NCBI RefSeq assembly: GCF_053078305.1
Contig: NZ_CP166879.1
Direction: 5' to 3' (one strand)
DNA: 64,000 bases
Shown: piece after piece, positions 12,676-53,595 of the stretch
Layout of the letters: every line of letters begins with the position of its first letter
How positions within the stretch are numbered: the first letter of the stretch is position 1
Program-made: the position numbers and the translations under genes
Notes under the pieces: generated by a model
Seen by the model: the letters and a program-made list of their open reading frames with translations, nothing else
Databases searched by the model: none
Told to the model about the DNA's origin: nothing

Positions 12676-12764
12676 AAAGACTCCAGATGATCGATGGTTC
12701 TATTGTGCTTCTTCCAGTTTGAGAAATAAAATTGATTTATTGCATCCATTCATGAAGAAAACAG

Positions 12765-38944: not shown

Positions 38945-39187
38945 ATGATTTATTTATGGATGTTTCTCGCCCTGTGTATTGTCTGCGTAAGCGGCTACAT
39001 CGGTCAGGTACTGAACGTGGTATCGGCGGTCTCTTCTTTCTTCGGCATGGTGATCCTCGCTGCACTCATTTATTACTTCACCATGTGGTTAACAGGCGGT
39101 AATGAACTGGTGACGGGGATATTTATGTTTCTTGCCCCGGCTTGTGGCTTGATGATTCGCTTTATGGTGGGGTATGGCAGGCGGTAG
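38945..39187 (+). CDS. yfdY: DUF2545 small membrane protein
   Basis: 80 aa hydrophobic ORF MIYLWMFLALCIVCVSGYIG. Confidence 0.65.
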   Translation: MIYLWMFLALCIVCVSGYIGQVLNVVSAVSSFFGMVILAALIYYFTMWLTGGNELVTGIFMFLAPACGLMIRFMVGYGRR

Positions 39188-39263
39188 TGGGTCAGGATGG
39201 CTCATTTGGGCAGGTGTTCACATCAGCATCAGACATGATTGCTCACCTGCCATGTGACAGACG

Positions 39264-39539
39264 CTATCGCACAGGATGAATAAGATAACTCGCCTTTGTC
39301 GGATAAGTGGGCGTGGTTTCTTCTGTGAGGTTTAATGGTGGCGCATCTTCTCTCATCTTAAACAAAATCGCCTGTGATGGCTGAAATTTTGTAGAGTGAG
39401 TTGTCGTCATCGCTGACGTTTTTTCCGTCTCTTTATAGCTCGCCTCACTACCACCACCAGAAATAGAAAATGCAAAAACATTGCATGCCATAATAGAGAC
39501 CAATAAAAATAAGCTAAAAAGCATTAAGTTTACTTTCAT
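39264..39539 (-). CDS. ypdI: putative lipoprotein YpdI
   Basis: 91 aa with signal peptide and lipobox-like MAC at residues 17-19. Confidence 0.65.
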   Translation of the reverse strand: MKVNLMLFSLFLLVSIMACNVFAFSISGGGSEASYKETEKTSAMTTTHSTKFQPSQAILFKMREDAPPLNLTEETTPTYPTKASYLIHPVR

Positions 39540-39681
39540 AGAAAGTTATCCTGAAAATGGTTCACTGAAAACCTACGACGTTATGGCTGTATTTACATAT
39601 AATTAATCAGTATTTACATCGATATAATAAATGACATCTCTTTGTGGTATATAAGAATAGTTCTCTGTGACAGGAAGCAGA

Positions 39682-39699
39682 TTCCTACAACTGTAAGAT
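39682..39699. promoter_or_regulatory. EvgA-box-like 18-bp inverted repeat upstream of yfdX
   Basis: TTCCTACAacTGTAAGAT versus reported EvgA box TTCYTACA-N2-TGTARGAA; about 135 bp upstream of yfdX. Confidence 0.5.
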
Positions 39700-39834
39700 T
39701 AAAATACTTCTTGCGATAATAACTACAAGTGTAAGATAACCCTTTCAAAATGACCGTTGCTCTCTGATTTCTCATTTCATGCTCACCCAATATGATGGCG
39801 GCGTTTTCTAAAACTGTTAAAGAATGAGGTAAGT

Positions 39835-40467
39835 ATGAAACGTTTAATTATGGCTACGATGGTCACAGCTATTCTGGCATCTTCAACTGTATGGGCTGCT
39901 GATAATGCACCGGTAGCGGCACAACAGCAAACTCAGCAAGTTCAGCAAACCCAGAAAACGGCAGCAGCAGAGCGTATCTCTGAACAAGGTTTATATGCGA
40001 TGCGTGACGTGCAGGTAGCGCGCCTGGCTCTGTTTCATGGCGATCCGGAAAAGGCAAAAGAACTGACCAATGAAGCTTCCGCTTTGTTGTCAGATGACAG
40101 TACCGAATGGGCAAAGTTCGCTAAGCCAGGTAAAAAGACCAATCTCAATGATGACCAATATATTGTCATTAATGCATCTGTCGGAATTTCTGAGAGTTAT
40201 GTAGCGACACCCGAAAAAGAAGCCGCGATAAAAATTGCCAATGAAAAAATGGCGAAAGGGGATAAAAAGGGCGCAATGGAAGAGCTTCGCCTGGCCGGTG
40301 TTGGTGTAATGGAAAACCAATATCTGATGCCGCTTAAACAGACTCGTAATGCACTTGCTGATGCGCAGAAACTGCTTGATAAAAAGCAATACTACGAGGC
40401 AAACCTGGCGCTTAAAGGTGCGGAAGATGGAATCATCGTCGATAGCGAAGCACTGTTTGTGAACTAA
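39835..40467 (+). CDS. yfdX: periplasmic YfdX-family protein
   Basis: 210 aa with signal peptide [21 protein letters not shown]; first gene of the EvgA-regulated acid-resistance cluster. Confidence 0.85.
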
Positions 40468-40710
40468 TGCTGACAGGCAGTATATTGAGGTAAAGGATTT
40501 AACTCCCTCCAGCCGACAATTTTTTATGACCACAATACGACAGGTTGTGGTCATAAAATTATTTGGCGCTCGCTGTTCTATAAACTCGCATTTTATATTC
40601 CTCAAAGTAAACCGCAATAATCCCGTGTCATCACAAATTATTTAATATGTTATATTTTATGGTACGCTTTAAAAAGCGTAATCATACCCTTACTTGTAAA
40701 TCACCGGCGC

Positions 40711-40728
40711 TTCTTACAGTTGTAAGAA
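40711..40728. promoter_or_regulatory. EvgA box (perfect 18-bp inverted repeat) upstream of frc
   Basis: TTCTTACAgtTGTAAGAA, perfect palindrome matching EvgA consensus, about 250 bp upstream of frc. Confidence 0.55.
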
Positions 40729-40978
40729 TAACATCACAAATGTCGCGACTCTCTCTGATTACCACGAACCAATATTTATCATATTCTTCTTTTCGTCCTC
40801 ACTACTTACCATGCAGAAAGGAATTGGAAGTAGCGATGAAATGATTTTCAGTACTTGATACAGGAATGTAAAAATATCGAGTGCCGCTACGACGATATTT
40901 TGCGGATTATTTATAGAGGCGTTACGCCTTAAATAAACGCTAAATTAACACATATTTAATTAACTAATAGGTATTGCT

Positions 40979-42229
40979 ATGTCAACTCCACTTCAAGGAA
41001 TTAAAGTTCTCGATTTCACCGGTGTGCAATCTGGCCCATCTTGTACTCAAATGCTGGCCTGGTTTGGCGCTGACGTCATTAAAATTGAACGCCCCGGCGT
41101 TGGTGACGTAACGCGTCACCAGCTGCGAGATATTCCTGATATCGATGCGCTTTACTTCACCATGCTTAACAGTAACAAACGTTCTATTGAGTTAAATACC
41201 AAAACAGCGGAAGGCAAAGAGGTAATGGAAAAGCTGATCCGCGAAGCTGATATCTTAGTCGAGAACTTTCATCCAGGGGCCATTGATCACATGGGTTTCA
41301 CCTGGGAGCATATTCAAGAAATCAATCCACGTCTGATTTTTGGTTCGATCAAAGGGTTTGATGAGTGTTCGCCTTATGTGAATGTAAAAGCCTATGAAAA
41401 CGTTGCTCAGGCAGCGGGTGGCGCGGCATCCACTACGGGTTTTTGGGACGGTCCGCCGCTGGTAAGCGCTGCAGCGTTGGGTGACAGCAACACCGGAATG
41501 CATTTACTGATCGGTTTACTTGCTGCTTTGCTGCATCGCGAAAAAACGGGGCGTGGGCAACGAGTCACCATGTCAATGCAGGATGCCGTATTGAACCTTT
41601 GCCGCGTGAAATTACGCGACCAGCAGCGTCTCGATAAATTGGGTTATCTGGAAGAATACCCGCAGTATCCGAATGGCACATTTGGTGATGCAGTTCCCCG
41701 CGGAGGTAATGCGGGTGGTGGCGGTCAGCCTGGCTGGATCCTGAAATGTAAAGGTTGGGAAACCGATCCTAACGCCTATATTTATTTCACTATTCAGGAG
41801 CAAAACTGGGAAAACACCTGTAAAGCCATCGGCAAACCAGATTGGATTACCGATCCGGCATACAGTACAGCCCATGCCCGACAGCCACATATTTTCGATA
41901 TTTTTGCTGAAATCGAAAAATACACTGTCACTATTGATAAACATGAAGCGGTGGCCTATTTGACTCAATTTGATATTCCTTGTGCACCGGTTTTAAGTAT
42001 GAAAGAAATTTCACTTGATCCCTCTTTACGCCAAAGTGGCAGTGTTGTCGAAGTGGAACAACCGTTGCGTGGAAAATATCTGACAGTTGGTTGTCCAATG
42101 AAATTCTCTGCCTTTACGCCAGATATTAAAGCTGCGCCGCTATTAGGTGAACATACCGCTGCTGTATTGCAGGAGCTGGGTTATAGCGACGATGAAATTG
42201 CTGCAATGAAGCAAAACCACGCCATCTGA
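40979..42229 (+). CDS. frc: formyl-CoA:oxalate CoA-transferase
   Basis: 416 aa CoA-transferase family III (CaiB/BaiF) [43 protein letters not shown]. Confidence 0.9.
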
Positions 42230-42282
42230 TATTAACGGGGGCTTCTGGCTCCCAATTTATAAAAATTTCGAGGTTATTAATC

Positions 42283-43977
42283 ATGTCAGATCAACTTCAA
42301 ATGACAGATGGTATGCATATCATCGTTGAAGCATTAAAACAGAATAATATTGACACTATTTATGGTGTTGTAGGTATTCCTGTGACGGATATGGCGCGCC
42401 ATGCCCAGGCGGAAGGCATTCGTTATATTGGTTTTCGTCATGAGCAGTCGGCAGGCTATGCCGCTGCGGCAAGCGGTTTTCTTACCCAAAAACCGGGGAT
42501 CTGCCTGACAGTGTCTGCGCCAGGATTCCTCAATGGTTTGACCGCATTGGCCAACGCAACGGTAAATGGTTTTCCGATGATCATGATTAGCGGCTCCAGC
42601 GACCGCGCGATCGTTGACCTACAGCAAGGTGATTATGAAGAGCTGGACCAAATGAATGCGGCAAAACCGTATGCCAAAGCAGCATTTCGCGTTAATCAGC
42701 CGCAGGATCTTGGCATTGCATTGGCACGCGCTATCCGGGTCTCCGTATCGGGTCGCCCTGGCGGAGTTTATCTTGATTTGCCAGCAAATGTCCTGGCCGC
42801 GACGATGGAAAAAGACGAAGCGTTAACCACGATTGTAAAAGTTGAAAATCCGTCGCCAGCATTATTGCCATGCCCGAAGTCAGTCACTAGCGCAATTTCG
42901 CTTTTAGCAAAAGCTGAACGGCCATTAATTATCCTTGGCAAAGGCGCGGCGTATTCACAAGCTGACGAACAGCTTCGTGAATTTATTGAAAGTGCCCAGA
43001 TTCCATTCCTGCCAATGTCTATGGCGAAAGGGATCCTCGAAGATACGCATCCACTTTCTGCGGCAGCTGCGCGTTCGTTTGCCCTGGCAAATGCTGACGT
43101 TGTCATGCTTGTTGGTGCACGACTGAATTGGTTACTGGCACACGGTAAAAAAGGATGGGCGGCAGATACACAGTTTATTCAACTGGATATTGAACCGCAG
43201 GAAATTGACAGCAACCGCCCCATTGCTGTGCCAGTCGTTGGCGATATTGCATCCAGTATGCAAGGTATGCTGGCAGAACTGAAACAAAACACATTTACGA
43301 CTCCACTGGTATGGCGCGATATTTTAAATATCCACAAGCAGCAAAATGCACAAAAAATGCATGAAAAATTAAGTACAGATACCCAACCATTAAATTACTT
43401 TAATGCATTAAGTGCTGTGCGCGATGTATTGCGTGAGAACCAGGATATTTATTTAGTTAATGAAGGTGCAAATACCCTGGATAATGCACGAAATATTATT
43501 GATATGTATAAACCACGTCGTCGTCTGGATTGTGGTACCTGGGGTGTCATGGGCATCGGTATGGGCTATGCCATCGGTGCTAGCGTGACCTCTGGTTCTC
43601 CGGTTGTCGCCATTGAAGGTGATAGTGCTTTTGGTTTCAGTGGGATGGAGATTGAAACGATTTGTCGATATAACCTGCCGGTGACGATCGTTATTTTTAA
43701 TAATGGCGGCATCTACAGAGGAGACGGTGTTGATCTCAGTGGCGCTGGTGCACCATCACCAACAGATCTGTTGCACCATGCAAGGTATGACAAATTAATG
43801 GATGCGTTTCGTGGCGTTGGCTATAACGTCACCACGACAGATGAACTTCGTCATGCTTTAACCACCGGTATTCAGTCGCGCAAACCGACCATTATTAATG
43901 TGGTCATCGACCCTGCAGCAGGAACTGAAAGTGGCCATATTACCAAACTTAACCCAAAACAAGTCGCTGGTAATTAA
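42283..43977 (+). CDS. oxc: oxalyl-CoA decarboxylase (ThDP-dependent)
   Basis: 564 aa; TPP-binding motif GDSAFGFSGMEIETICRYNLPVTIVIFNNGG. Confidence 0.9.
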   Translation: MSDQLQMTDGMHIIVEALKQNNIDTIYGVVGIPVTDMARHAQAEGIRYIGFRHEQSAGYAAAASGFLTQKPGICLTVSAPGFLNGLTALANATVNGFPMIMISGSSDRAIVDLQQGDYEELDQMNAAKPYAKAAFRVNQPQDLGIALARAIRVSVSGRPGGVYLDLPANVLAATMEKDEALTTIVKVENPSPALLPCPKSVTSAISLLAKAERPLIILGKGAAYSQADEQLREFIESAQIPFLPMSMAKGILEDTHPLSAAAARSFALANADVVMLVGARLNWLLAHGKKGWAADTQFIQLDIEPQEIDSNRPIAVPVVGDIASSMQGMLAELKQNTFTTPLVWRDILNIHKQQNAQKMHEKLSTDTQPLNYFNALSAVRDVLRENQDIYLVNEGANTLDNARNIIDMYKPRRRLDCGTWGVMGIGMGYAIGASVTSGSPVVAIEGDSAFGFSGMEIETICRYNLPVTIVIFNNGGIYRGDGVDLSGAGAPSPTDLLHHARYDKLMDAFRGVGYNVTTTDELRHALTTGIQSRKPTIINVVIDPAAGTESGHITKLNPKQVAGN

Positions 43978-44046
43978 ATACTGACATCGTCTCCTCTTGC
44001 CAACTCATTATGCGATGGTGAGGGGACCCTTATCGGAAATACTATT

Positions 44047-44991
44047 ATGCTAACATTTTTTATTGGCGATTTATTGCCTATTATCGTAATCATGCTGTTG
44101 GGTTATTTTAGCGGCAGACGAGAAACTTTTTCAGAAGATCAAGCTCGGGCATTTAATAAACTGGTATTAAACTACGCTCTTCCTGCGGCTCTATTTGTAT
44201 CTATTACCCGGGCAAACAGGGAAATGATTTTTGCGGACACTCGTCTGACCCTTGTATCACTTGTGGTTATTGTCGGATGTTTCTTTTTCTCCTGGTTTGG
44301 TTGCTACAAATTTTTTAAACGTACCCATGCAGAAGCAGCTGTATGTGCATTAATTGCAGGTTCACCTACCATTGGATTCCTGGGGTTTGCAGTTCTCGAT
44401 CCTATTTATGGTGATTCCGTATCAACAGGTTTAGTGGTAGCAATTATTTCTATTATTGTTAACGCAATTACTATTCCTATTGGTCTGTATTTGCTGAATC
44501 CTTCCTCAGGAGCGGATGGTAAGAAGAATAGTAATCTGAGCGCATTAATTTCTGCGGCAAAGGAGCCAGTTGTATGGGCACCTGTTCTGGCAACGATCCT
44601 GGTGTTGGTTGGGGTAAAAATTCCGGCAGCATGGGACCCAACCTTTAATCTGATTGCGAAGGCTAACTCAGGGGTAGCGGTATTCGCTGCGGGGTTGACT
44701 CTGGCTGCACATAAATTCGAGTTCAGTGCCGAAATTGCTTATAACACCTTCCTGAAGCTGATTCTGATGCCACTGGCGCTGCTTCTCGTTGGTATGGCAT
44801 GTCATTTGAACAGCGAACATTTGCAGATGATGGTACTGGCAGGCGCATTACCGCCGGCATTCTCCGGAATCATTATTGCCAGCCGGTTTAATGTCTACAC
44901 CCGCACTGGTACAGCGTCATTGGCTGTGAGCGTACTGGGCTTTGTCGTCACGGCTCCCTTGTGGATTTATGTCAGTCGACTGGTTTCATAA
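44047..44991 (+). CDS. yfdV: AEC (auxin efflux carrier) family transporter
   Basis: 314 aa polytopic membrane ORF in the frc-oxc cluster. Confidence 0.85.
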
Positions 44992-45064
44992 TTAATCATG
45001 TTATTGATTTTACATAAATGCCGAAGTGTCTTTTCACCTTCGGCTTTTTTCAAGGCATAAGCAA

Positions 45065-46210
45065 ATGACAAATAATGAAAGCAAAGGGCCGTTTGAAGGC
45101 TTATTAGTTATCGATATGACACATGTCCTTAATGGACCTTTCGGAACTCAACTTCTTTGTAATATGGGCGCAAGGGTAATTAAAGTTGAGCCACCAGGTC
45201 ATGGTGATGATACCCGCACATTTGGTCCCTATGTGGATGGACAGTCACTCTATTACAGTTTTATTAATCATGGTAAAGAGAGTGTGGTTCTTGATTTAAA
45301 GAATGATCACGATAAAAGTATATTTATAAATATGCTTAAACAAGCTGATGTATTAGCTGAGAATTTTCGCCCAGGTACAATGGAAAAACTGGGGTTTTCA
45401 TGGGAAAGGTTACAAGAAATCAACCCGCGCCTCATATATGCTTCATCGTCAGGTTTCGGACATACCGGTCCGCTAAAAGATGCTCCTGCCTACGATACCA
45501 TCATTCAGGCAATGAGCGGGATAATGATGGAAACGGGATACCCTGATGCTCCGCCAGTGCGCGTTGGCACTTCTCTTGCGGATCTATGTGGCGGTGTCTA
45601 TTTATTCAGTGGAATAGTGAGTGCACTTTATGGCCGCGAAAAGAGCCAGAGAGGGGCGCATGTCGATATAGCGATGTTTGATGCCACGCTGAGTTTTCTG
45701 GAGCACGGGCTGATGGCATATATCGCGACTGGGAAGTCACCACAACGTTTGGGAAATCGCCACCCCTACATGGCACCTTTTGATGTTTTCGATACTCAGG
45801 ATAAGCCGATTACGATTTGTTGTGGTAATGACAAGCTTTTCTCTGCGTTATGCCAGGCACTGGAGCTTACGGAACTGGTTAATGATCCCAGATTTAGCAG
45901 CAATATTTTACGCGTACAAAACCAGGCTATTCTTAAACAATATATTGAGCGGACGTTAAAAACACAGGCAGCTGAAGTTTGGTTAGCCAGAATACATGAA
46001 GTTGGTGTGCCCGTCGCGCCGTTATTAAGTGTGGCTGAGGCCATTAATTTGCCACAAACTCAGGCGAGAAATATGTTGATTGAAGCCGGGGGAATAATGA
46101 TGCCGGGTAATCCGATAAAAATCAGTGGCTGCGCGGACCCGCATGTTATGCCGGGAGCGGCAACGCTCGACCAGCATGGGGAACAAATTCGCCAGGAGTT
46201 CTCATCATAA
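45065..46210 (+). CDS. yfdE: acetyl-CoA:oxalate CoA-transferase (family III CoA-transferase)
   Basis: Start placed at MTNNESKGPFEGLLVIDMTHVLNGPFGTQ (381 aa), paralogous to frc; track ORF has 13-codon extension. Confidence 0.85.
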   Translation: MTNNESKGPFEGLLVIDMTHVLNGPFGTQLLCNMGARVIKVEPPGHGDDTRTFGPYVDGQSLYYSFINHGKESVVLDLKNDHDKSIFINMLKQADVLAENFRPGTMEKLGFSWERLQEINPRLIYASSSGFGHTGPLKDAPAYDTIIQAMSGIMMETGYPDAPPVRVGTSLADLCGGVYLFSGIVSALYGREKSQRGAHVDIAMFDATLSFLEHGLMAYIATGKSPQRLGNRHPYMAPFDVFDTQDKPITICCGNDKLFSALCQALELTELVNDPRFSSNILRVQNQAILKQYIERTLKTQAAEVWLARIHEVGVPVAPLLSVAEAINLPQTQARNMLIEAGGIMMPGNPIKISGCADPHVMPGAATLDQHGEQIRQEFSS

Positions 46211-46232
46211 ATGTAAGATGTGCTGGTAAATA

Positions 46233-46259
46233 GCTCCCACATTTGAACATTGTGGGAGC
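46233..46259. terminator. hairpin between convergent yfdE and evgS
   Basis: GCTCCCACAtttgaacatTGTGGGAGC, 9-bp perfect stem. Confidence 0.5.
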
Positions 46260-46265
46260 CGCTAT

Positions 46266-49200
46266 TTAGTCATTTTGTTGACAGAAAACAGCAATCTCCT
46301 GGTCCAGCTCTGCAATGTGTTCTTTTACAGAGTTCAGCAACTGAAGAATTTCAGGTTTACTGTCATCTGAAACAGGTGTTATTTCTAACTGATGGCTAAT
46401 ATTAATCAACTTTTGCAAATTCAGGATGTTAGCCGCACCGTGGATGCGATGAATACATTGATGGAAAGTTCTGTTATCGCCAGCTTCTAGTGCATGAAAC
46501 GCAGCGGGTAGATCTTTATGGGTTTCATGCTGGAAAGTCATGAGAATCTCCTGCATCAGTTGTAGATCGTTCGCCGTATTATTTTTCAGGGCTTCGATAT
46601 CAAGGTGGCGATACTGAGGTGCAATATGCACAACCTGGTGTAACTGACTTAAATGTGTTTTCAGTACATCCAGGGTCAACGGTTTGAACAAACATAAGTT
46701 CATGCCGCAATTTAACCCTTTTTCACGTTCGTTAGCCTGTGCGTTGGCTGTAAGCCCCCAGATGGGTAAGGACGAATTTTGCTCACGGAGTTTGCGAGTC
46801 AACTCAAAACCATCCATATTCGGCATATTAACGTCAGTAATAAGCAGATCATAATGTTGCATACTGACTTTGTGTAACGCTTGCACACCATCAGTGGCTT
46901 CGTCAACATCATATCCTAATAGATTTAGCTGGCGTTTGAGTAATAGCCTGTTGGTCGGATGATCATCCGCGATTAATATGCTCAACTTTTCAGGTAGTGT
47001 GATAGGTTGTTCTGCTTTTGCCTCGACAGCCGCCACTTGTTGGGTAATTTCTACCGGGATTGTGATCGTAAATGTTGTTCCTATGCCTGGATGACTTTCT
47101 AATGACAAATCACCCTGCATGTTTTTAATTAATTCTTTGCAGATCATTAAGCCTAAACCAGAACCTGTTTGCTGACGACCTGCACTTGTTTGGCTATAAC
47201 GTTTAAACAGTTGTTGTTGTTCTTCCTGTGATAATCCACTTCCAGAATCCATAATCGTCATTTTGATTACAGCGTGGTTGTCATCAATGTGAACCAGGGA
47301 GGTCGTAATTTTTACTGCCCCCTCGGTGGTAAATTTGAGAGCATTGCTCAGTAAATTAGATAAGACCTGCTTAAACGCCTGAGGGTCGATCTTAACCAGG
47401 TAATGTTCAGGAAACGTACTGCTGCAACTTAATGCGATCGATTTGCTTGCAGCAATCGCACCGAAAGAGTGACAAGTGTTCTGGACTAAAGTAGGGATAT
47501 CGACCCATTGTGGTTGAAGTTGATAGTTACCCGATTCAATTTTGTCGACATCAAGGATTTCACCAATTAAGCCGAGGAGTGATTGTCCGGTGGCGTAGGC
47601 AAGTGAAATCGCCTCCACACGTTGCTCCTTGCTAAGACCAGAACCCGACAGAAGTTCCAGGAAGCCCATAATGGAGCTAATTGGTGTTCTTATTTCGTGA
47701 CTCATTGTTGCCAGAAACTGGCTTTTTGCGACAGTTGCATTGATCGCTTTATTTCTCTCTACTTCGAGTGCATGAATTAAATCACGCGTCTCGGTAATAT
47801 CTTGCCAACCACAAATATAAACAGCATGATCGCTGGCTGGCAGATTGCATAATGTATGCCAGTGATTAATGCATCTTTTCTCGATGCCATTATCAATTTC
47901 AAATACCTGTGTGTATATTGTTCGATTTTCTTTCGTTTCTGCTGTGACTTCATGCGCATTAGAAAAAACATCTTTAAAGGGGGAGTCACTGTTTTCTAAT
48001 GGTAACATTGCATTTTTGTAGTAATCCGCAGTGAAATAATGTTCAAAAGCACTATTATGACTAATGACATTACCTTGCCAGTTTACAACATAAGTTGGAT
48101 TCGGTAAGGAATCCGAGAGTGCTTTCCGGAATGATATTTGGTTTTCTAAATCACCCTGAATGACTTTACGACGACGAACTGAGCGTAACAGGTAGAATCC
48201 CCATAAAAGGCTACTGCCAACTAATAAAACGGATAATGTCGTAACAATATAAAATTGCTCGCTATAGAGGTCCCATGTGTCAATGGTCACATTGGGCATT
48301 TTAATCCATTTTTCGGTCAGGCGCAGAACTTCGCTTGGGGGGATTGCATTCAGTGCTTTATTAATAATATCCTTAAGTTCCGGTTCTCCGCGAGGAAAAG
48401 CGAACGAAAGCGATGCATTCGGAACGCCGGGAATAAGAAAATGATAAAGTTCATTAGGATAGTAATGGTCGATCATGTAACGTGAATTTAACTGTGTCGC
48501 GACCAGAGCATCAAGTTCGCCTTCCTTGACCTTGTGAAATGCAGCGCTGGCGTTATCGACTTTTATCCACTCTACCTCCGGATACATCTCTTTTAATTGC
48601 GAATGAAGCTCATAATAATATGGAATGGCAACTTTCATTCCTTTTTTTAATGTTTGTTCACTGTCAGGCGCTTTTTGCATGACAAAAACGTAAGGCGTTG
48701 TTATGAAGGCTTCAGCAAATAAAACATTATTTTCTCTATCTTCACTATAAATAGCACCGGGTAATATATCCCATCCGCCGGGATTCAGCTGTGTTCCAGC
48801 ATGGATATTGTGTGAAACGGTGATCGGAGAAAAATTTAAACCTGTTTGCAAGGTAATAATATTAAGAATGTCCCCCATAACGCCCCGAACCGAGCCATTT
48901 TCATCCGTCATAGAATAGGGGGGCGAGTAAGGATTTTCCAGCACCTTTAAATCGGGATGCTGCTTAATCCACTGTTTTTCATGTTCAGTGAGTTCTAATG
49001 GTTTGTTCAGAAAGGCCAGGTTTCCTGTATCAAGCCAATTTTGTGATACTTCATAGCGAACTTCATTTGTCAAAGCATCAACAAATCGATTGAGTACTTC
49101 ATTAAGAACGACAGATTCTTTTCTGGTCAAGAAAAAATTATATTGACGCGGTGAGTTATAATATTTCACTACATTTAAGGAGTGAGTGAAATAGCGGGAA

Positions 49201-49859
49201 ATCATACTGCTGGTAATGATGTTACTACCAATAAAGTAATCATTCTGTCCGGCTGAGACGGATGCTAATGCCTGATATAAATTTGTAAAAGAGATAATTG
49301 TTGCTTTTGGAAATGATTGATGAATTACCTCGTCAGGGGGATAATTTGCTACTCGAGCAATATTTACTGGTTTTGATGAGGTAAGCGGTCGCATTGAATC
49401 GTGAAGGGTGGTGACCAGCGCCGGAAAGGTAATTATCAGTGGTTTGGTTGCAGCAATGTCATCATTAAGAGGCGGCGAAGCAACTAAATGTGATAACACT
49501 ATATCGACTTCACCTTCTTCCAGCGCGTCCATTGCTTTTTGATGATCGGCGTATTCCCGGAGTGTTAATTTGATATTTAACGCTCTTTTTAAAAGATTTA
49601 AATAATCAGCATTAATACCACGAACCCGTTGCTGCGAATCGGTATGCAACAACGTAGCCGTTTGGGACTTATGTACTGCAATCACAAGATTTTTTTTGCT
49701 CGCTAACCAACGTAATTCCTTGTTGCTCAGACGTAGTGGATCAAGTGTGACACGGTTGTTACTACTGATGCCACGATATTCGATGTAATCTTCGTCTGCG
49801 AAACTTATGGTCGACCAAAGACCACAACAGAGAAGAAAAATATAGGGTAAAAACTTCAT
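46266..49859 (-). CDS. evgS: hybrid sensor histidine kinase EvgS (periplasmic Venus-flytrap domains, HisKA, receiver, HPt)
   Basis: 1197 aa; signal peptide, two PBP-like domains, TM, H-box (MSHEIRTPISSIMG), receiver (LIADDHPTNR), C-terminal HPt. Confidence 0.93.
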   Translation of the reverse strand: MKFLPYIFLLCCGLWSTISFADEDYIEYRGISSNNRVTLDPLRLSNKELRWLASKKNLVIAVHKSQTATLLHTDSQQRVRGINADYLNLLKRALNIKLTLREYADHQKAMDALEEGEVDIVLSHLVASPPLNDDIAATKPLIITFPALVTTLHDSMRPLTSSKPVNIARVANYPPDEVIHQSFPKATIISFTNLYQALASVSAGQNDYFIGSNIITSSMISRYFTHSLNVVKYYNSPRQYNFFLTRKESVVLNEVLNRFVDALTNEVRYEVSQNWLDTGNLAFLNKPLELTEHEKQWIKQHPDLKVLENPYSPPYSMTDENGSVRGVMGDILNIITLQTGLNFSPITVSHNIHAGTQLNPGGWDILPGAIYSEDRENNVLFAEAFITTPYVFVMQKAPDSEQTLKKGMKVAIPYYYELHSQLKEMYPEVEWIKVDNASAAFHKVKEGELDALVATQLNSRYMIDHYYPNELYHFLIPGVPNASLSFAFPRGEPELKDIINKALNAIPPSEVLRLTEKWIKMPNVTIDTWDLYSEQFYIVTTLSVLLVGSSLLWGFYLLRSVRRRKVIQGDLENQISFRKALSDSLPNPTYVVNWQGNVISHNSAFEHYFTADYYKNAMLPLENSDSPFKDVFSNAHEVTAETKENRTIYTQVFEIDNGIEKRCINHWHTLCNLPASDHAVYICGWQDITETRDLIHALEVERNKAINATVAKSQFLATMSHEIRTPISSIMGFLELLSGSGLSKEQRVEAISLAYATGQSLLGLIGEILDVDKIESGNYQLQPQWVDIPTLVQNTCHSFGAIAASKSIALSCSSTFPEHYLVKIDPQAFKQVLSNLLSNALKFTTEGAVKITTSLVHIDDNHAVIKMTIMDSGSGLSQEEQQQLFKRYSQTSAGRQQTGSGLGLMICKELIKNMQGDLSLESHPGIGTTFTITIPVEITQQVAAVEAKAEQPITLPEKLSILIADDHPTNRLLLKRQLNLLGYDVDEATDGVQALHKVSMQHYDLLITDVNMPNMDGFELTRKLREQNSSLPIWGLTANAQANEREKGLNCGMNLCLFKPLTLDVLKTHLSQLHQVVHIAPQYRHLDIEALKNNTANDLQLMQEILMTFQHETHKDLPAAFHALEAGDNRTFHQCIHRIHGAANILNLQKLINISHQLEITPVSDDSKPEILQLLNSVKEHIAELDQEIAVFCQQND

Positions 49860-49863
49860 GTGG

Positions 49864-50478
49864 TTAGCCGATTTTGTTACGTTGTGCGAATGTGTAAAGA
49901 TCCATCAGTGATTTACATTCTAATTTTTCCATCAGGCGACTTTTATAAGTGCTGACAGTTTTGTTGCTGATGAACATTTTTTCAGCAATGTCATTATTAT
50001 CCTTGCCATCAAGAATATAGCGCATGACACTAATTTCTTGTTTCGATAAGGAGTCGAGTTTTTGCTGGTCGGACGTTAAACTTCCAACAAACCGGTTGAG
50101 AGAGAAGGGGAAATAGCAGTAGCCATTTTTTGCAGCTTCAATAGCCGCAATGATATTGTTCATGCCTTCTTTTTTACTCACGAAACCATTAGCGCCAGCA
50201 TCAGCACAATGTTTCCCGTAAAAATGGTCATTTTTAGCGGAGACGATAATAATAATTCCGCTATATTGGCGCTTCCTCAGCGTTTCTAACACCTGGATAC
50301 CGTTAACTCCGGGGATATCGACATCAATGATGACGATATCAGGCTTAAGTGTTTCCACCCGCTGAACGGCACTTCCGCCTTCAGTCAACTCTGCTAAGAT
50401 TTCAATATCGTTTTTGATCAATAAATTACGAATTGCTGCGATAGCAAGAGGATGGTCATCAATAATTATTGCGTTCAT
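49864..50478 (-). CDS. evgA: NarL/FixJ-family response regulator EvgA
   Basis: 204 aa; receiver (MNAIIIDDHPLAIAAIRNLL) plus LuxR-type HTH. Confidence 0.93.
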   Translation of the reverse strand: MNAIIIDDHPLAIAAIRNLLIKNDIEILAELTEGGSAVQRVETLKPDIVIIDVDIPGVNGIQVLETLRKRQYSGIIIIVSAKNDHFYGKHCADAGANGFVSKKEGMNNIIAAIEAAKNGYCYFPFSLNRFVGSLTSDQQKLDSLSKQEISVMRYILDGKDNNDIAEKMFISNKTVSTYKSRLMEKLECKSLMDLYTFAQRNKIG

Positions 50479-50702
50479 AGATTATTCCCTTTGCAATGAA
50501 GCATCTCCCTTCTCCCTGTAGTAATACAGACATAAGGCATCATCTCATTTTCTCAATAAAAATAAGAAAATTTGAGCTTCCTTTAAGATAATTCGACAAG
50601 TATACCATATAAATAGTCGGCATATATGAAATGTCAACAATAAAATCAGGGATTATACCGATGATTTATAGTTTCAAGTTAGCACTATAAGTCTTCTCAC
50701 TA

Positions 50703-50720
50703 ATCCTACAGGCGTAAGAA
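50703..50720. promoter_or_regulatory. EvgA-box-like inverted repeat in evgA-emrK divergent intergenic region
   Basis: ATCCTACAggCGTAAGAA, close match to TTCYTACA-N2-TGTARGAA. Confidence 0.45.
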
Positions 50721-50893
50721 TTGTATTGCAAAAGCCACGGTTTAGTCCTCTGTTGTTTTTTTTGCACCTCATTTAAATTAGGCCTCCAACGTTCCTGGGA
50801 TAATGTGCAACACATGCACTGTGTTTGATATGAAGAATGAATACTCTTTTCATTCAATTCATAAATTTCATCTATGCGAAATGAGAGATAATA

Positions 50894-52057
50894 GTGGAAC
50901 AGATTAATTCAAATAAAAAACATTCTAACAGAAGAAAATACTTTTCTTTATTGGCGATAGTTTTATTTATTGCGTTTTCAGGTGCTTATGCCTATTGGTC
51001 AATGGAATTAGAAGACATGATTAGTACAGATGACGCCTATGTCACGGGGAATGCAGATCCAATTTCTGCACAAGTCTCAGGTAGTGTCACTGTAGTTAAT
51101 CATAAAGATACGAACTACGTTCGACAGGGTGACATTTTAGTTTCACTGGATAAAACTGATGCCACTATCGCACTCAATAAAGCTAAAAATAATCTGGCAA
51201 ATATTGTTCGGCAAACGAATAAACTGTACTTACAGGATAAACAATACAGTGCCGAAGTCGCTTCAGCACGTATTCAGTATCAACAATCTTTAGAAGATTA
51301 TAACCGTCGTGTGCCTTTAGCGAAGCAGGGGGTTATTTCAAAAGAAACGCTGGAGCATACCAAAGATACGTTAATAAGTAGCAAAGCGGCATTGAATGCC
51401 GCTATCCAGGCTTATAAAGCGAATAAAGCTTTAGTAATGAACACACCATTAAACCGTCAGCCACAAGTCGTTGAAGCTGCGGATGCAACCAAAGAAGCCT
51501 GGTTGGCGCTTAAACGTACGGATATTAAGAGTCCGGTTACCGGCTATATTGCCCAGAGAAGTGTTCAGGTCGGCGAAACAGTGAGCCCCGGACAATCGTT
51601 AATGGCTGTCGTACCGGCACGTCAAATGTGGGTTAATGCCAACTTTAAAGAAACACAACTCACGGATGTACGGATTGGTCAATCGGTCAATATTATCAGC
51701 GATCTTTATGGTGAAAATGTTGTGTTTCATGGCCGGGTGACAGGGATCAATATGGGAACCGGCAATGCGTTCTCCTTATTACCTGCACAAAATGCGACAG
51801 GGAACTGGATCAAAATCGTTCAGCGTGTACCGGTTGAAGTTTCTCTTGATCCAAAAGAACTCATGGAACACCCCTTGCGCATTGGTTTATCGATGACTGC
51901 AACTATTGATACGAAGGACGAAGACATTGCTGAGATGCCTGATCTGGCTTCAACCGTGACCTCCATGCCTGCTTATACCAGTAAGGCTTTAGTTATCGAT
52001 ACCAGTCCGATAGAAAAAGAAATTAGCAACATTATTTCGCATAATGGACAACTTTAA
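50894..52057 (+). CDS. emrK: multidrug efflux membrane fusion protein (EmrA-like)
   Basis: 387 aa; N-terminal TM anchor, HlyD-family coiled-coil/lipoyl regions; divergent from evgA. Confidence 0.9.
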   Translation: MEQINSNKKHSNRRKYFSLLAIVLFIAFSGAYAYWSMELEDMISTDDAYVTGNADPISAQVSGSVTVVNHKDTNYVRQGDILVSLDKTDATIALNKAKNNLANIVRQTNKLYLQDKQYSAEVASARIQYQQSLEDYNRRVPLAKQGVISKETLEHTKDTLISSKAALNAAIQAYKANKALVMNTPLNRQPQVVEAADATKEAWLALKRTDIKSPVTGYIAQRSVQVGETVSPGQSLMAVVPARQMWVNANFKETQLTDVRIGQSVNIISDLYGENVVFHGRVTGINMGTGNAFSLLPAQNATGNWIKIVQRVPVEVSLDPKELMEHPLRIGLSMTATIDTKDEDIAEMPDLASTVTSMPAYTSKALVIDTSPIEKEISNIISHNGQL

Positions 52058-53595
52058 TGGCAATCACTAAATCAACTCCAGCACCATTAACCGGTGGGAC
52101 GTTATGGTGCGTCACTATTGCATTGTCATTAGCGACGTTTATGCAAATGTTGGATTCCACTATTTCTAACGTCGCAATACCGACAATATCTGGCTTTCTG
52201 GGAGCATCAACAGACGAAGGCACCTGGGTTATCACCTCGTTTGGCGTAGCAAATGCCATTGCGATCCCTGTTACCGGCAGGCTGGCACAAAGAATAGGCG
52301 AATTAAGGTTATTTTTACTTTCAGTCACTTTTTTTTCGCTGTCTTCCTTAATGTGTAGTTTATCGACCAATCTTGATGTGTTGATATTTTTTAGAGTCGT
52401 TCAGGGGTTAATGGCAGGGCCGTTAATTCCACTGTCACAGAGTTTATTATTAAGGAATTATCCACCAGAAAAAAGAACATTTGCTCTGGCATTATGGTCA
52501 ATGACCGTGATTATAGCTCCGATATGTGGGCCGATATTAGGCGGATATATTTGCGATAACTTTAGCTGGGGTTGGATATTTTTAATCAATGTCCCTATGG
52601 GTATTATCGTCCTGACATTATGCTTAACCTTACTTAAAGGAAGAGAAACTGAGACTTCACCGGTCAAAATGAATCTACCAGGACTGACCCTGTTAGTGCT
52701 CGGTGTTGGTGGCTTGCAAATTATGCTTGATAAAGGGCGCGATCTGGATTGGTTCAACTCGAGTACAATAATAATATTAACAGTAGTATCAGTTATTTCT
52801 CTGATCTCTTTAGTCATTTGGGAGTCGACCTCAGAGAACCCGATTCTTGATCTCAGTTTGTTTAAGTCCCGTAATTTCACCATTGGTATAGTGAGTATCA
52901 CATGCGCGTATTTATTTTACTCTGGAGCGATCGTCCTTATGCCGCAGTTACTCCAGGAAACGATGGGGTATAATGCGATATGGGCCGGACTTGCTTATGC
53001 GCCCATCGGCATCATGCCACTATTAATTTCACCTTTGATAGGACGTTATGGCAACAAAATAGACATGCGGTTGTTAGTGACATTTAGTTTTTTGATGTAT
53101 GCGGTTTGCTATTACTGGCGTTCTGTGACATTTATGCCAACGATTGATTTTACAGGCATCATTTTGCCACAGTTTTTCCAGGGGTTCGCCGTTGCCTGTT
53201 TCTTTTTACCCTTAACAACGATTTCGTTTTCAGGGTTGCCAGATAATAAATTTGCCAATGCCTCGAGTATGAGTAATTTTTTTCGTACCTTGTCAGGATC
53301 AGTTGGTACGTCGTTGACAATGACGCTGTGGGGGCGACGCGAATCGTTACACCATAGTCAGTTGACAGCAACCATCGATCAATTTAACCCTGTGTTTAAT
53401 TCATCGTCACAAATTATGGATAAATACTATGGTTCGCTTTCAGGAGTTCTTAATGAAATTAATAATGAAATAACCCAGCAGTCACTTTCTATTTCTGCAA
53501 ATGAGATTTTCCGTATGGCGGCTATTGCTTTTATCTTACTTACGGTTTTGGTTTGGTTTGCGAAACCGCCGTTTACAGCGAAAGGCGTTGGGTGA
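52057..53595 (+). CDS. emrY: MFS multidrug efflux transporter (EmrB-like, 14-TM)
   Basis: 512 aa MFS ORF; start overlaps emrK stop (TAATGG). Confidence 0.9.
   Translation: MAITKSTPAPLTGGTLWCVTIALSLATFMQMLDSTISNVAIPTISGFLGASTDEGTWVITSFGVANAIAIPVTGRLAQRIGELRLFLLSVTFFSLSSLMCSLSTNLDVLIFFRVVQGLMAGPLIPLSQSLLLRNYPPEKRTFALALWSMTVIIAPICGPILGGYICDNFSWGWIFLINVPMGIIVLTLCLTLLKGRETETSPVKMNLPGLTLLVLGVGGLQIMLDKGRDLDWFNSSTIIILTVVSVISLISLVIWESTSENPILDLSLFKSRNFTIGIVSITCAYLFYSGAIVLMPQLLQETMGYNAIWAGLAYAPIGIMPLLISPLIGRYGNKIDMRLLVTFSFLMYAVCYYWRSVTFMPTIDFTGIILPQFFQGFAVACFFLPLTTISFSGLPDNKFANASSMSNFFRTLSGSVGTSLTMTLWGRRESLHHSQLTATIDQFNPVFNSSSQIMDKYYGSLSGVLNEINNEITQQSLSISANEIFRMAAIAFILLTVLVWFAKPPFTAKGVG

Follow-up and report, generated by a model that had tools for sequence, protein, structure and literature searches.

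Inverted repeats at yfdX, frc and evgA-emrK in an Escherichia coli isolate as probable operators of the response regulator EvgA

Response regulators of the NarL/FixJ family recognize inverted heptamers separated by a 2-bp spacer, as exemplified by the 7-2-7 arrangement of NarL. A more elaborate layout is found for BvgA at the Bordetella fha and ptx promoters, where weaker promoter-proximal sites accompany an inverted repeat of high affinity placed far upstream, the secondary sites being spaced by roughly 22 bp as far as the -35 element. For the EvgAS regulon of E. coli K-12, an 18-bp inverted repeat was reportedly described by Masuda and Church in 2002/2003; their 2002 abstract is said to name six upstream regions serving seven operons, and direct EvgA targets were reportedly confirmed by Kato et al. 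in 2000 and by Itou, Eguchi and Utsumi in 2009.

The 64-kb stretch of DNA analyzed here (the window) displays the E. coli gene order ypdI-yfdX-frc-oxc-yfdV-yfdE-evgS-evgA-emrK-emrY and derives from a non-K-12 strain, with best identities of 99.5–100% to other isolates. Motif, genes and positions are the same as in the K-12 EvgAS regulon (counterparts at 2494538-55, 2493506-23 and 2483513-30 in K-12), differences being confined to the N2 spacer and the last base of the yfdX boxes. Together with the boxes at safA, ydeP and yegR, the count in the window fits the six upstream regions and seven operons reported for K-12 EvgA. It seems very likely (probability about 0.9) that the boxes are operators of EvgA, a NarL-family response regulator encoded in the same window, and that frc-oxc-yfdV-yfdE has a promoter of its own. 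In common with NarL 7-2-7, the arrangement points to a LuxR-type helix-turn-helix dimer that reads an inverted repeat and leaves its 2-bp spacer uncontacted, and the spacer of the EvgA box is indeed its sole freely varying part. Unlike the NarL sites, the EvgA box has 8-bp arms of another sequence (TTCYTACA), from which EvgA would act as an activator at about -74.5. EvgAS was named after BvgAS, and both systems employ phosphorelay-controlled NarL-family activators. The strong distal and weak proximal boxes at yfdX resemble the BvgA arrangement at fha and ptx; in contrast to the BvgA sites, they lie 38 bp apart, and cooperativity is hypothetical here.

The gene names used in the original prediction (yfdX, frc, evgA and emrK) are those given by the RefSeq annotation beneath the matches, and the assignment is further backed by an order and sizes of open reading frames equal to those of K-12 b2367–b2375. 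The spacer between yfdX and frc measures 511 bp, as had been claimed, with yfdX ending at 40467. The intergenic parts are AT-rich (32–38% GC), and an Rfam scan of positions 39000–51500 (E <= 1) yielded nothing in the spacers and two sub-threshold chance matches within genes. The features discussed below are collected in Table 1.

Table 1. Positions of boxes, genes and predicted promoter and terminator elements in the window
Feature	Position	Strand	Description
yfdX box 1 (distal, strong)	39682..39699		TTCCTACAACTGTAAGAT; 1 mismatch (last base); 21.2 bits
yfdX box 2 (proximal, weak)	39720..39737		TAACTACAAGTGTAAGAT; 3 mismatches; absent from the original prediction
Predicted yfdX -10 hexamer	39791..39796	+	TATGAT, in TTCTCA-16-TATGAT; offset 54 from box 2
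yfdX CDS	39835..40467	+	210 aa; RefSeq annotation beneath match
Intrinsic-terminator-like hairpin after yfdX	40522..40558	+	15-bp stem, then UUAUUU
frc box	40711..40728		TTCTTACAGTTGTAAGAA; 0 mismatches to TTCYTACA-N2-TGTARGAA; 22.2 bits, best in window
CTCTCTGATT element	40751..40760	+	23-32 nt after frc box; invariant in all strains
Predicted frc -10 hexamer	40782..40787	+	TATTCT; offset 54 from box end; alternative TATCAT at 40777-40782
frc, oxc, yfdV, yfdE	frc 40979-42229, oxc 42283-43977, yfdV 44047-44991, yfdE to 46210	+	Unit probably served by the frc box
evgA	49864..50478	-	Probable regulator reading the boxes; ORF and RefSeq annotation
evgL	~50475-50504	-	9-codon leader ORF overlapping evgA start; annotated in K-12; ATGCTTCATTGCAAAGGGAATAATCTATGA
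evgA-emrK box	50703..50720		Divergent intergenic region; ATCCTACAGGCGTAAGAA; 2 mismatches; 19.2 bits
Predicted emrK -10 hexamer	50774..50779	+	TAAATT; offset 54 from box end
emrK CDS	50894..52057	+	387 aa; GTG start

The three inverted repeats predicted upstream of yfdX, upstream of frc and between evgA and emrK were all recovered with the positions and sequences proposed. The description of the frc box as a perfect palindrome holds for its 8-bp arms, which are fully complementary, but not for the central GT, which is not self-complementary.

Since the intergenic DNA is AT-rich, the matches might represent chance similarity devoid of any regulatory role, and the fourth site as well as all matches with four mismatches do lie at the noise level of the weight matrix. 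However, not a single exact consensus match arose in 100 dinucleotide-preserving shuffles of the window, and with up to 3 mismatches allowed the window holds 4 matches against 0.58 expected, a number that no shuffle reached. A scan of the 64 kb with an EvgA weight matrix, which had been suggested along with the original prediction, was run with a symmetric matrix trained solely on three K-12 boxes outside the window (safA, ydeP and yegR). The three sites occupy ranks 1–3 and score above all null maxima of 200 simulations (mean 12.2, highest 18.2). Moreover, every main site lies upstream of a gene reported to be EvgA-regulated, and substitutions among strains track the 8-2-8 structure of the motif. 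For the three main sites, a chance origin is thus practically refuted, and overall its probability is negligible. The 4-mismatch matches at 12709, 12937, 16310 and 40169, together with the lower matrix matches, were set aside as noise. Beyond the window, safA, ydeP and yegR, the remaining EvgA targets of K-12, are preceded by the same motif. The gadE upstream region contains no box at up to 3 mismatches; the sole match in the gadE locus is situated within mdtE and is apparently fortuitous.

A comparison of diverse E. coli strains shows half-sites that hardly change, next to a variable 2-bp spacer and variable flanks. In the strain alignments, 1 of 64 half-site positions is polymorphic, compared with 4 of 8 N2 positions (p = 3e-4) and 95 of 1129 other noncoding columns; the difference between half-sites and other noncoding columns is borderline (p = 0.055). 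The strains are, moreover, not independent of one another. Neither the frc box nor the 20 bp that follow it show any variation among 11 diverse E. coli, in contrast to the polymorphic upstream flank. Among 10 strains, the half-sites of yfdX box 1 differ at the last base only and its N2 also varies, and among 6 strains the first N2 position alone varies in the evgA-emrK box. K-12 was left out of the alignment upstream of yfdX, its box sequences being taken from a separate scan. Frc homologue loci were drawn from 100,044 species; the closest non-E. coli Frc proteins among the matches listed belong to Moellerella and Providencia (86% amino acid identity), followed by Burkholderiales. When the preceding 3 kb were scanned for boxes at 2 or fewer mismatches, none appeared at any non-E. 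coli Frc locus among these matches, which makes a cross-genus footprint impossible.

The existence of an EvgA-dependent promoter for frc-oxc-yfdV-yfdE within the 511-bp spacer, as put forward in the original prediction, is supported by a terminator, by conservation, by the offset of a promoter hexamer and by the literature. By its sequence, the hairpin following yfdX has the features of an intrinsic (Rho-independent) terminator with an imperfect U-tract as its tail (UUAUUUGG). It is stable (dG of -25.4 kcal/mol including flanks; z = -4.8; none of 200 shuffles equally stable) and evolutionarily maintained, one A-U pair of the stem being replaced by G-C through compensatory substitution in strain KFu014. 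Because the U-tract is imperfect, some read-through from yfdX is likely. A CTCTCTGATT element follows the frc box, and an identical 10-mer is found 23–32 nt after yfdX box 2 (39760-39769); this element probably represents the -35-proximal promoter segment. The TATTCT at the canonical offset from the frc box is weak, whereas the alternative TATCAT, 5 nt upstream, is better. Judged from this geometry, the frc transcript would start near 40794 and carry a leader of ~185 nt. The gaps within frc-oxc-yfdV-yfdE are short (53–73 bp), and a terminator scan found no site in them, its 7 matches lying near the chance expectation of 4.6.

Alternatively, yfdX, frc, oxc, yfdV and yfdE could form a single operon transcribed from the yfdX promoter only, the frc box serving as an auxiliary element through looping to the yfdX boxes ~1 kb away or through anti-silencing. 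Several papers do speak of a 'yfdXWUVE operon', and an induction of yfdX orders of magnitude above that of yfdWUVE (PMC4759549) would fit attenuated read-through, as would the imperfect U-tract; the AT-richness of the region is likewise compatible with this arrangement. In contrast, a single unit would have neither terminator nor promoter between yfdX and frc, and the spacer holds, in silico, a stable, maintained hairpin as well as an EvgA box of canonical geometry. The distance from the frc box to its hexamer equals that at independent EvgA promoters, and the invariance of the box and its downstream 20 bp likewise speaks against a single operon. In evgS-constitutive strains, in which frc, oxc and emrKY are induced, the largest fold increase is that of frc (PMC4283999), and a passage in Mullins et al. 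(2013; PMC3720670), citing Masuda and Church 2003, has EvgA binding inverted repeats that induce yfdX and yfdWUVE separately. Taken together, transcription from the yfdX promoter only appears highly improbable. As Mullins et al. state the separate induction of yfdX and yfdWUVE, the reading in which frc has its own promoter was already known; the EvgA sites, including the separate EvgA-driven frc promoter, are correct and not new.

The symmetry of the frc box raises a further question, namely whether it gives rise, in addition to or in place of the frc transcript, to a divergent RNA from the minus strand that would be antisense to the yfdX 3′ end. The box between evgA and emrK serves two divergent promoters, and a minus-strand TAAAAT is located 52 nt from the frc box (40659-40654), within 1–2 nt of the canonical offset. 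However, no open reading frame or known RNA family resides there, the flank on that side is more polymorphic than any other part of the spacer and contains a 6-bp indel, a consensus promoter scan made no call there, and a TAnnnT at such an offset is, by our estimate, expected by chance in about 1 of 10 cases in AT-rich DNA. An antisense transcript from this box is therefore highly improbable.

The promoter assigned to frc shares its geometry with other EvgA promoters. In 6 of 7 (frc, yfdX with box 2, emrK, safA, ydeP and yegR), a -10-like hexamer is found 53–54 nt after the box, the summed score of 24.6 comparing with a null of 12.2 +/- 3.4 (p ~0.001); the evgA promoter departs from this rule, with a TATAAT at offset 46. 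Such an offset would place the centre of the EvgA box near -74.5, and the predicted starts of yfdX and emrK would lie near 39803 and 50786, respectively.

At yfdX it is the second, proximal box that conforms to this geometry, its offsets to CTCTCTGATT and to the -10-like hexamer being those of the frc box. Its matrix score (11.0 bits) is inside the null range; its half-sites are invariant among strains and both of its N2 positions vary. Of 5426 complete E. coli genomes, 414 (7.6%) contain a 38-bp duplication that adds a further box, as counted by means of a junction-specific 45-mer; these genomes have three boxes at yfdX, and at least one genome has more junctions. The yfdX upstream regions of IAI1 and GDAR2-2 are of the three-box type, those of MG1655 and of the window of the two-box type. 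Tentatively, and with considerable doubt, the yfdX control region may be regarded as naturally polymorphic in the copy number of its EvgA boxes, an arrangement in which the weak proximal box (~-74.5) would activate, the strong distal box or boxes at 38-bp distance would load EvgA cooperatively, and the duplication would tune either the strength of the yfdX response or its EvgA~P threshold.

The EvgA dependence and EvgA binding of the boxes are taken from the literature. Phosphorylated EvgA has been described as a direct activator of a PyfdX reporter (PMC5706723), and binding of EvgA at the emrKY promoter region is attributed to Kato 2000 in passages of two later papers (PMC8174306, PMC9496106). 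Deletion of evgA abolishes emrK induction (PMC6393483), yfdX, frc, oxc and yfdV are among the top induced genes in acid-stress data (PMC10746267), and all genes known as directly EvgA-regulated are stated to carry an EvgA binding site (PMC4283999). No genome-wide data on EvgA binding (ChIP, SELEX) turned up in a literature search, and querying texts for the consensus string or the term 'EvgA box' brought up nothing of use.

A mechanism consistent with these observations would begin with the activation of EvgS by mild acid (about pH 5.5–5.7), upon which EvgA would be phosphorylated. The phosphorylated EvgA dimer would then bind the 8-2-8 inverted repeat and, centred ~74 bp upstream of the start, activate sigma-70 promoters with poor -35 elements, presumably by a class-I-type contact with RNA polymerase. 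At yfdX, the canonical position would be taken by the weak proximal box; its strong distal counterpart, 38 bp off, would probably recruit or stabilize EvgA. The frc-oxc-yfdV-yfdE unit would be transcribed from its own promoter behind the perfect box, a separate promoter being needed because an intrinsic terminator comes after yfdX. The divergent evgA and emrKY pair would be served by a single common box.

In this locus, the direct EvgA targets are recovered with a motif noticed in the bare sequence, and yfdX and frc-oxc-yfdV-yfdE call for annotation as two separate transcription units under EvgA control instead of one operon. The significance beyond correct annotation is small. Possible additions are the conserved second yfdX box, the common spacing of ~-74.5 and the polymorphism in box number among natural isolates, all of which could bear on the strain-to-strain variation in EvgAS output that was reported on the basis of a PyfdX reporter with the MG1655 promoter (PMC5706723).

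Three EvgA boxes, 18-bp inverted repeats with two 8-bp half-sites around a 2-bp spacer (N2), lie where the original prediction had placed them, with the sequences it described. The frc box is the single exact match to TTCYTACANNTGTARGAA in 64 kb (0 in 100 shuffles), and four sites carry three mismatches or fewer, compared with 0.58 expected and a maximum below four in the shuffles. The weakest of them, yfdX box 2, was absent from the original list. The description of the frc site as a perfect palindrome holds for its 8-bp arms but not for its centre, where GT is not self-complementary. An independent test of the sites was made with a symmetric weight matrix trained on only three K-12 boxes, all outside the window and located with the pattern TTCYTACANNTGTARGAA upstream of the EvgA targets safA, ydeP, and yegR. 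In a scan of the whole window, as had been suggested, the three claimed sites took ranks 1-3 at 22.2, 21.2, and 19.2 bits, while the per-window maximum over 200 simulations had a mean of 12.2 and was at most 18.2. At 11.0 bits, yfdX box 2 falls inside the noise range of the same test. The three-box observation is confirmed, at a level far beyond chance. The abstract of Masuda and Church 2002 reportedly places an inverted repeat of 18 bp in six regions upstream of seven operons, a count that agrees with evgAS+emrKY, ydeP, safA-ydeO, yegRZ, yfdX, and yfdWUVE.

Coordinates of boxes, genes, and other features, with predicted -10 hexamers (window positions except for the K-12 loci L002 and L003, whose examined upstream regions are listed)
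Feature	Coordinates	Strand	Mismatches to TTCYTACANNTGTARGAA	-10 hexamer
yfdX box 1	39682-39699		1	
yfdX box 2, TAACTACAAGTGTAAGAT	39720-39737		3	TATGAT
CTCTCTGATT at yfdX	39760-39769			
yfdX	39835-40467			
Terminator-like stem-loop	40522-40558			
TAAAAT	40654-40659	minus		
frc box	40711-40728		0	TATTCT
CTCTCTGATT at frc	40751-40760			
15-codon ORF MQKGIGSSDEMIFST	40811-40858	plus		
frc	40979-42229			
oxc	42283-43977			
yfdV	44047-44991			
yfdE	end at 46210			
evgS	46266-49859	minus		
evgA	49864-50478	minus		
evgL	about 50475-50504	minus		
evgA/emrK box	50703-50720		2	TAAATT (emrK)
emrK	50894-52057			
emrY	52057-53595			
safA upstream region	L002 3990-4089			TATATT
ydeP upstream region	L002 6660-6748			TAATTT
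yegR upstream region	L003 6330-6431			TATTAT

Seven EvgA-regulated upstream regions (frc, yfdX box 2, emrK, evgA, safA, ydeP, and yegR) were anchored at the box end, and a sigma-70 -10 matrix was applied at every offset from it. Summed over the regions, the score has a sharp peak at offsets 53-54, reaching 24.6 versus a null maximum of 12.2 +/- 3.4, a value attained in 0.1% of 2000 shuffles. Six of the seven regions contribute; in the exception, evgA, a perfect TATAAT lies at offset 46 instead. By this shared offset, the frc box has the geometry of the undisputed EvgA promoters, and the canonical place at yfdX falls to the weak box 2, which would place the centre of the strong box 1 near -112.5. 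If transcription starts about 7 nt past the hexamer, box centres would lie near -74.5 and starts at about 40794 (frc), 39803 (yfdX), and 50786 (emrK); since a better hexamer, TATCAT, occurs 5 nt upstream of the frc TATTCT, the frc start could instead be near 40789. An identical CTCTCTGATT, with CCAATAT following it, is found 23-32 nt after both yfdX box 2 and the frc box. The two promoters resemble copies of a single module that have diverged; alternatively, a constrained -35-proximal element is common to both. EvgA promoters seem to show pairwise relatedness beyond the box itself. About 30 nt directly after the box are similar in safA and ydeP (A[C/A]TCCGC.CA...TGAAGC...AGTC.TATTT), and ydeP and yegR both have TTTAAACACTA(T)GAGAG close to where transcription is predicted to start.

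The yfdX-frc spacer, 511 bp long as originally given, consists in order from yfdX of a stem-loop, about 150 bp of AT-rich polymorphic DNA, the EvgA box, and an invariant block containing CTCTCTGATT. The terminator-like stem-loop begins about 55 nt past the yfdX stop codon and has a 15-bp stem followed by UUAUUU; with its flanks it folds at -25.4 kcal/mol (z = -4.8; equal stability in 0 of 200 shuffles), and in strain KFu014 an A-U pair of the stem is replaced by G-C, a compensatory change. This terminator-like hairpin separates yfdX from frc, against the label "yfdXWUVE operon" of some papers. The downstream scan placed no terminator-like site between frc, oxc, yfdV, and yfdE, where the gaps measure 53-73 bp; what it matched were short stems, about as many as chance would give. 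No Rfam family matched within the spacer or in the frc leader of roughly 185 nt. The leader contains a 15-codon ORF, not annotated in K-12 and without an obvious Shine-Dalgarno sequence, which hardly differs between strains (a synonymous change and a Ser/Gly change). The minus-strand TAAAAT, 52 nt off the symmetric frc box and near the canonical offset, could mark a divergent antisense promoter toward the yfdX 3′ end, but in AT-rich DNA it probably arose by chance.

For conservation, E. coli genomes were picked evenly along the similarity ranking, and nine yfdX-frc and four evgA-emrK loci were aligned together with those of the window and K-12. No variation occurs in the frc box or the next 20 bp, while the 20 bp upstream of the box are polymorphic. 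In the yfdX and evgA/emrK boxes, variation is confined to N2 and to the last base of box 1, which is non-consensus to begin with; the 20 bp separating the two yfdX boxes vary freely. Polymorphic positions amount to 1/64 in half-sites, 4/8 in N2, and 95/1129 in other noncoding columns (N2 versus half-sites, p = 3e-4; half-sites versus other noncoding, p = 0.055), p-values that are indicative only because the strains share ancestry. Even so, the variation tracks the 8-2-8 anatomy of the motif, weak yfdX box 2 included. Polymorphism in the region 39560-40978 is unusually high for E. coli: of about 5400 genomes, only 42-43 share at least 99% identity with the window, 11 strains differ at about 8% of noncoding columns, and the Gln/Ala-rich N-terminal part of yfdX has in-frame indels of 9 bp and 3 bp. 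Transcription of frc solely by read-through from yfdX may hold for part of the signal, since the U-tract of the hairpin is imperfect, but it leaves unexplained both the invariant box-plus-promoter block and the shared box-to-hexamer spacing. These two features, together with the hairpin and the literature, uphold the original proposal of an EvgA-dependent frc promoter inside the spacer.

In the proposed mechanism, EvgA phosphorylated by EvgS would bind the 8-2-8 repeat as a dimer and, from a class-I-like position at about -74.5, activate a weak sigma-70 promoter. yfdX would be transcribed as one unit that ends at the hairpin and frc-oxc-yfdV-yfdE as a second with its own box, while the evgA/emrK box would serve both emrKY and evgA, the former at the canonical spacing and the latter at another. 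A passage in Mullins et al. 2013 (PMC3720670), citing Masuda and Church 2003, has EvgA binding inverted repeats and inducing yfdX and yfdWUVE separately. In evgS-constitutive strains frc is the most strongly induced gene, and every gene known as directly EvgA-regulated has an EvgA binding site (Johnson et al. 2014, PMC4283999). Roggiani et al. 2017 (PMC5706723) worked with a PyfdX-yfp reporter described as "directly activated by phosphorylated EvgA", and passages of PMC8174306 and PMC9496106 cite Kato 2000 for binding of EvgA to the promoter region of emrKY. In acid-stress ribosome profiling (PMC10746267), yfdX, frc, yfdV, and oxc all rank among the genes with the strongest induction. Both the observation and the interpretation have been described before in E. 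coli K-12.

The window ORFs have the order and sizes of K-12 b2375-b2367 in opposite orientation; the strain is not K-12, its best matches being 99.5-100% and most genomes 95-99% identical. The 9-codon leader ORF evgL (MLHCKGNNL; b4781 in the K-12 annotation), which overlaps the evgA start codon (ATGA), is intact. Of 5426 complete E. coli genomes, 5420 match a 1.7-kb stretch around the boxes, annotated there in RefSeq as ypdI, yfdX, and frc, and the evgA-emrK spacer is likewise matched in complete E. coli genomes. In E. coli GDAR2-2, a 38-bp tandem duplication, equal in length to the distance between the yfdX boxes, yields three boxes upstream of yfdX (locus L089, 183-276, corresponding to window 39682-39737). 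A 45-nt junction-specific probe matches 414 (7.6%) of the 5426 complete genomes, IAI1 among them, and 417 places overall, up to three in one genome. The duplication represents a copy-number polymorphism of the yfdX operator array. Among the Frc matches listed (L006-L084 of the homologue survey), the nearest from other species belong to Moellerella and Providencia (86% amino acid identity), then to Burkholderiales, and none of those listed has an EvgA box with up to two mismatches within 3 kb upstream. The low GC content of the yfdX-emrY cluster (39500-53000; 32-54%, mostly 38-45% and near 42%), together with these closest listed homologues, suggests that the oxalate-degradation cluster is patchy, possibly horizontally acquired, and was placed under EvgA control in Escherichia.
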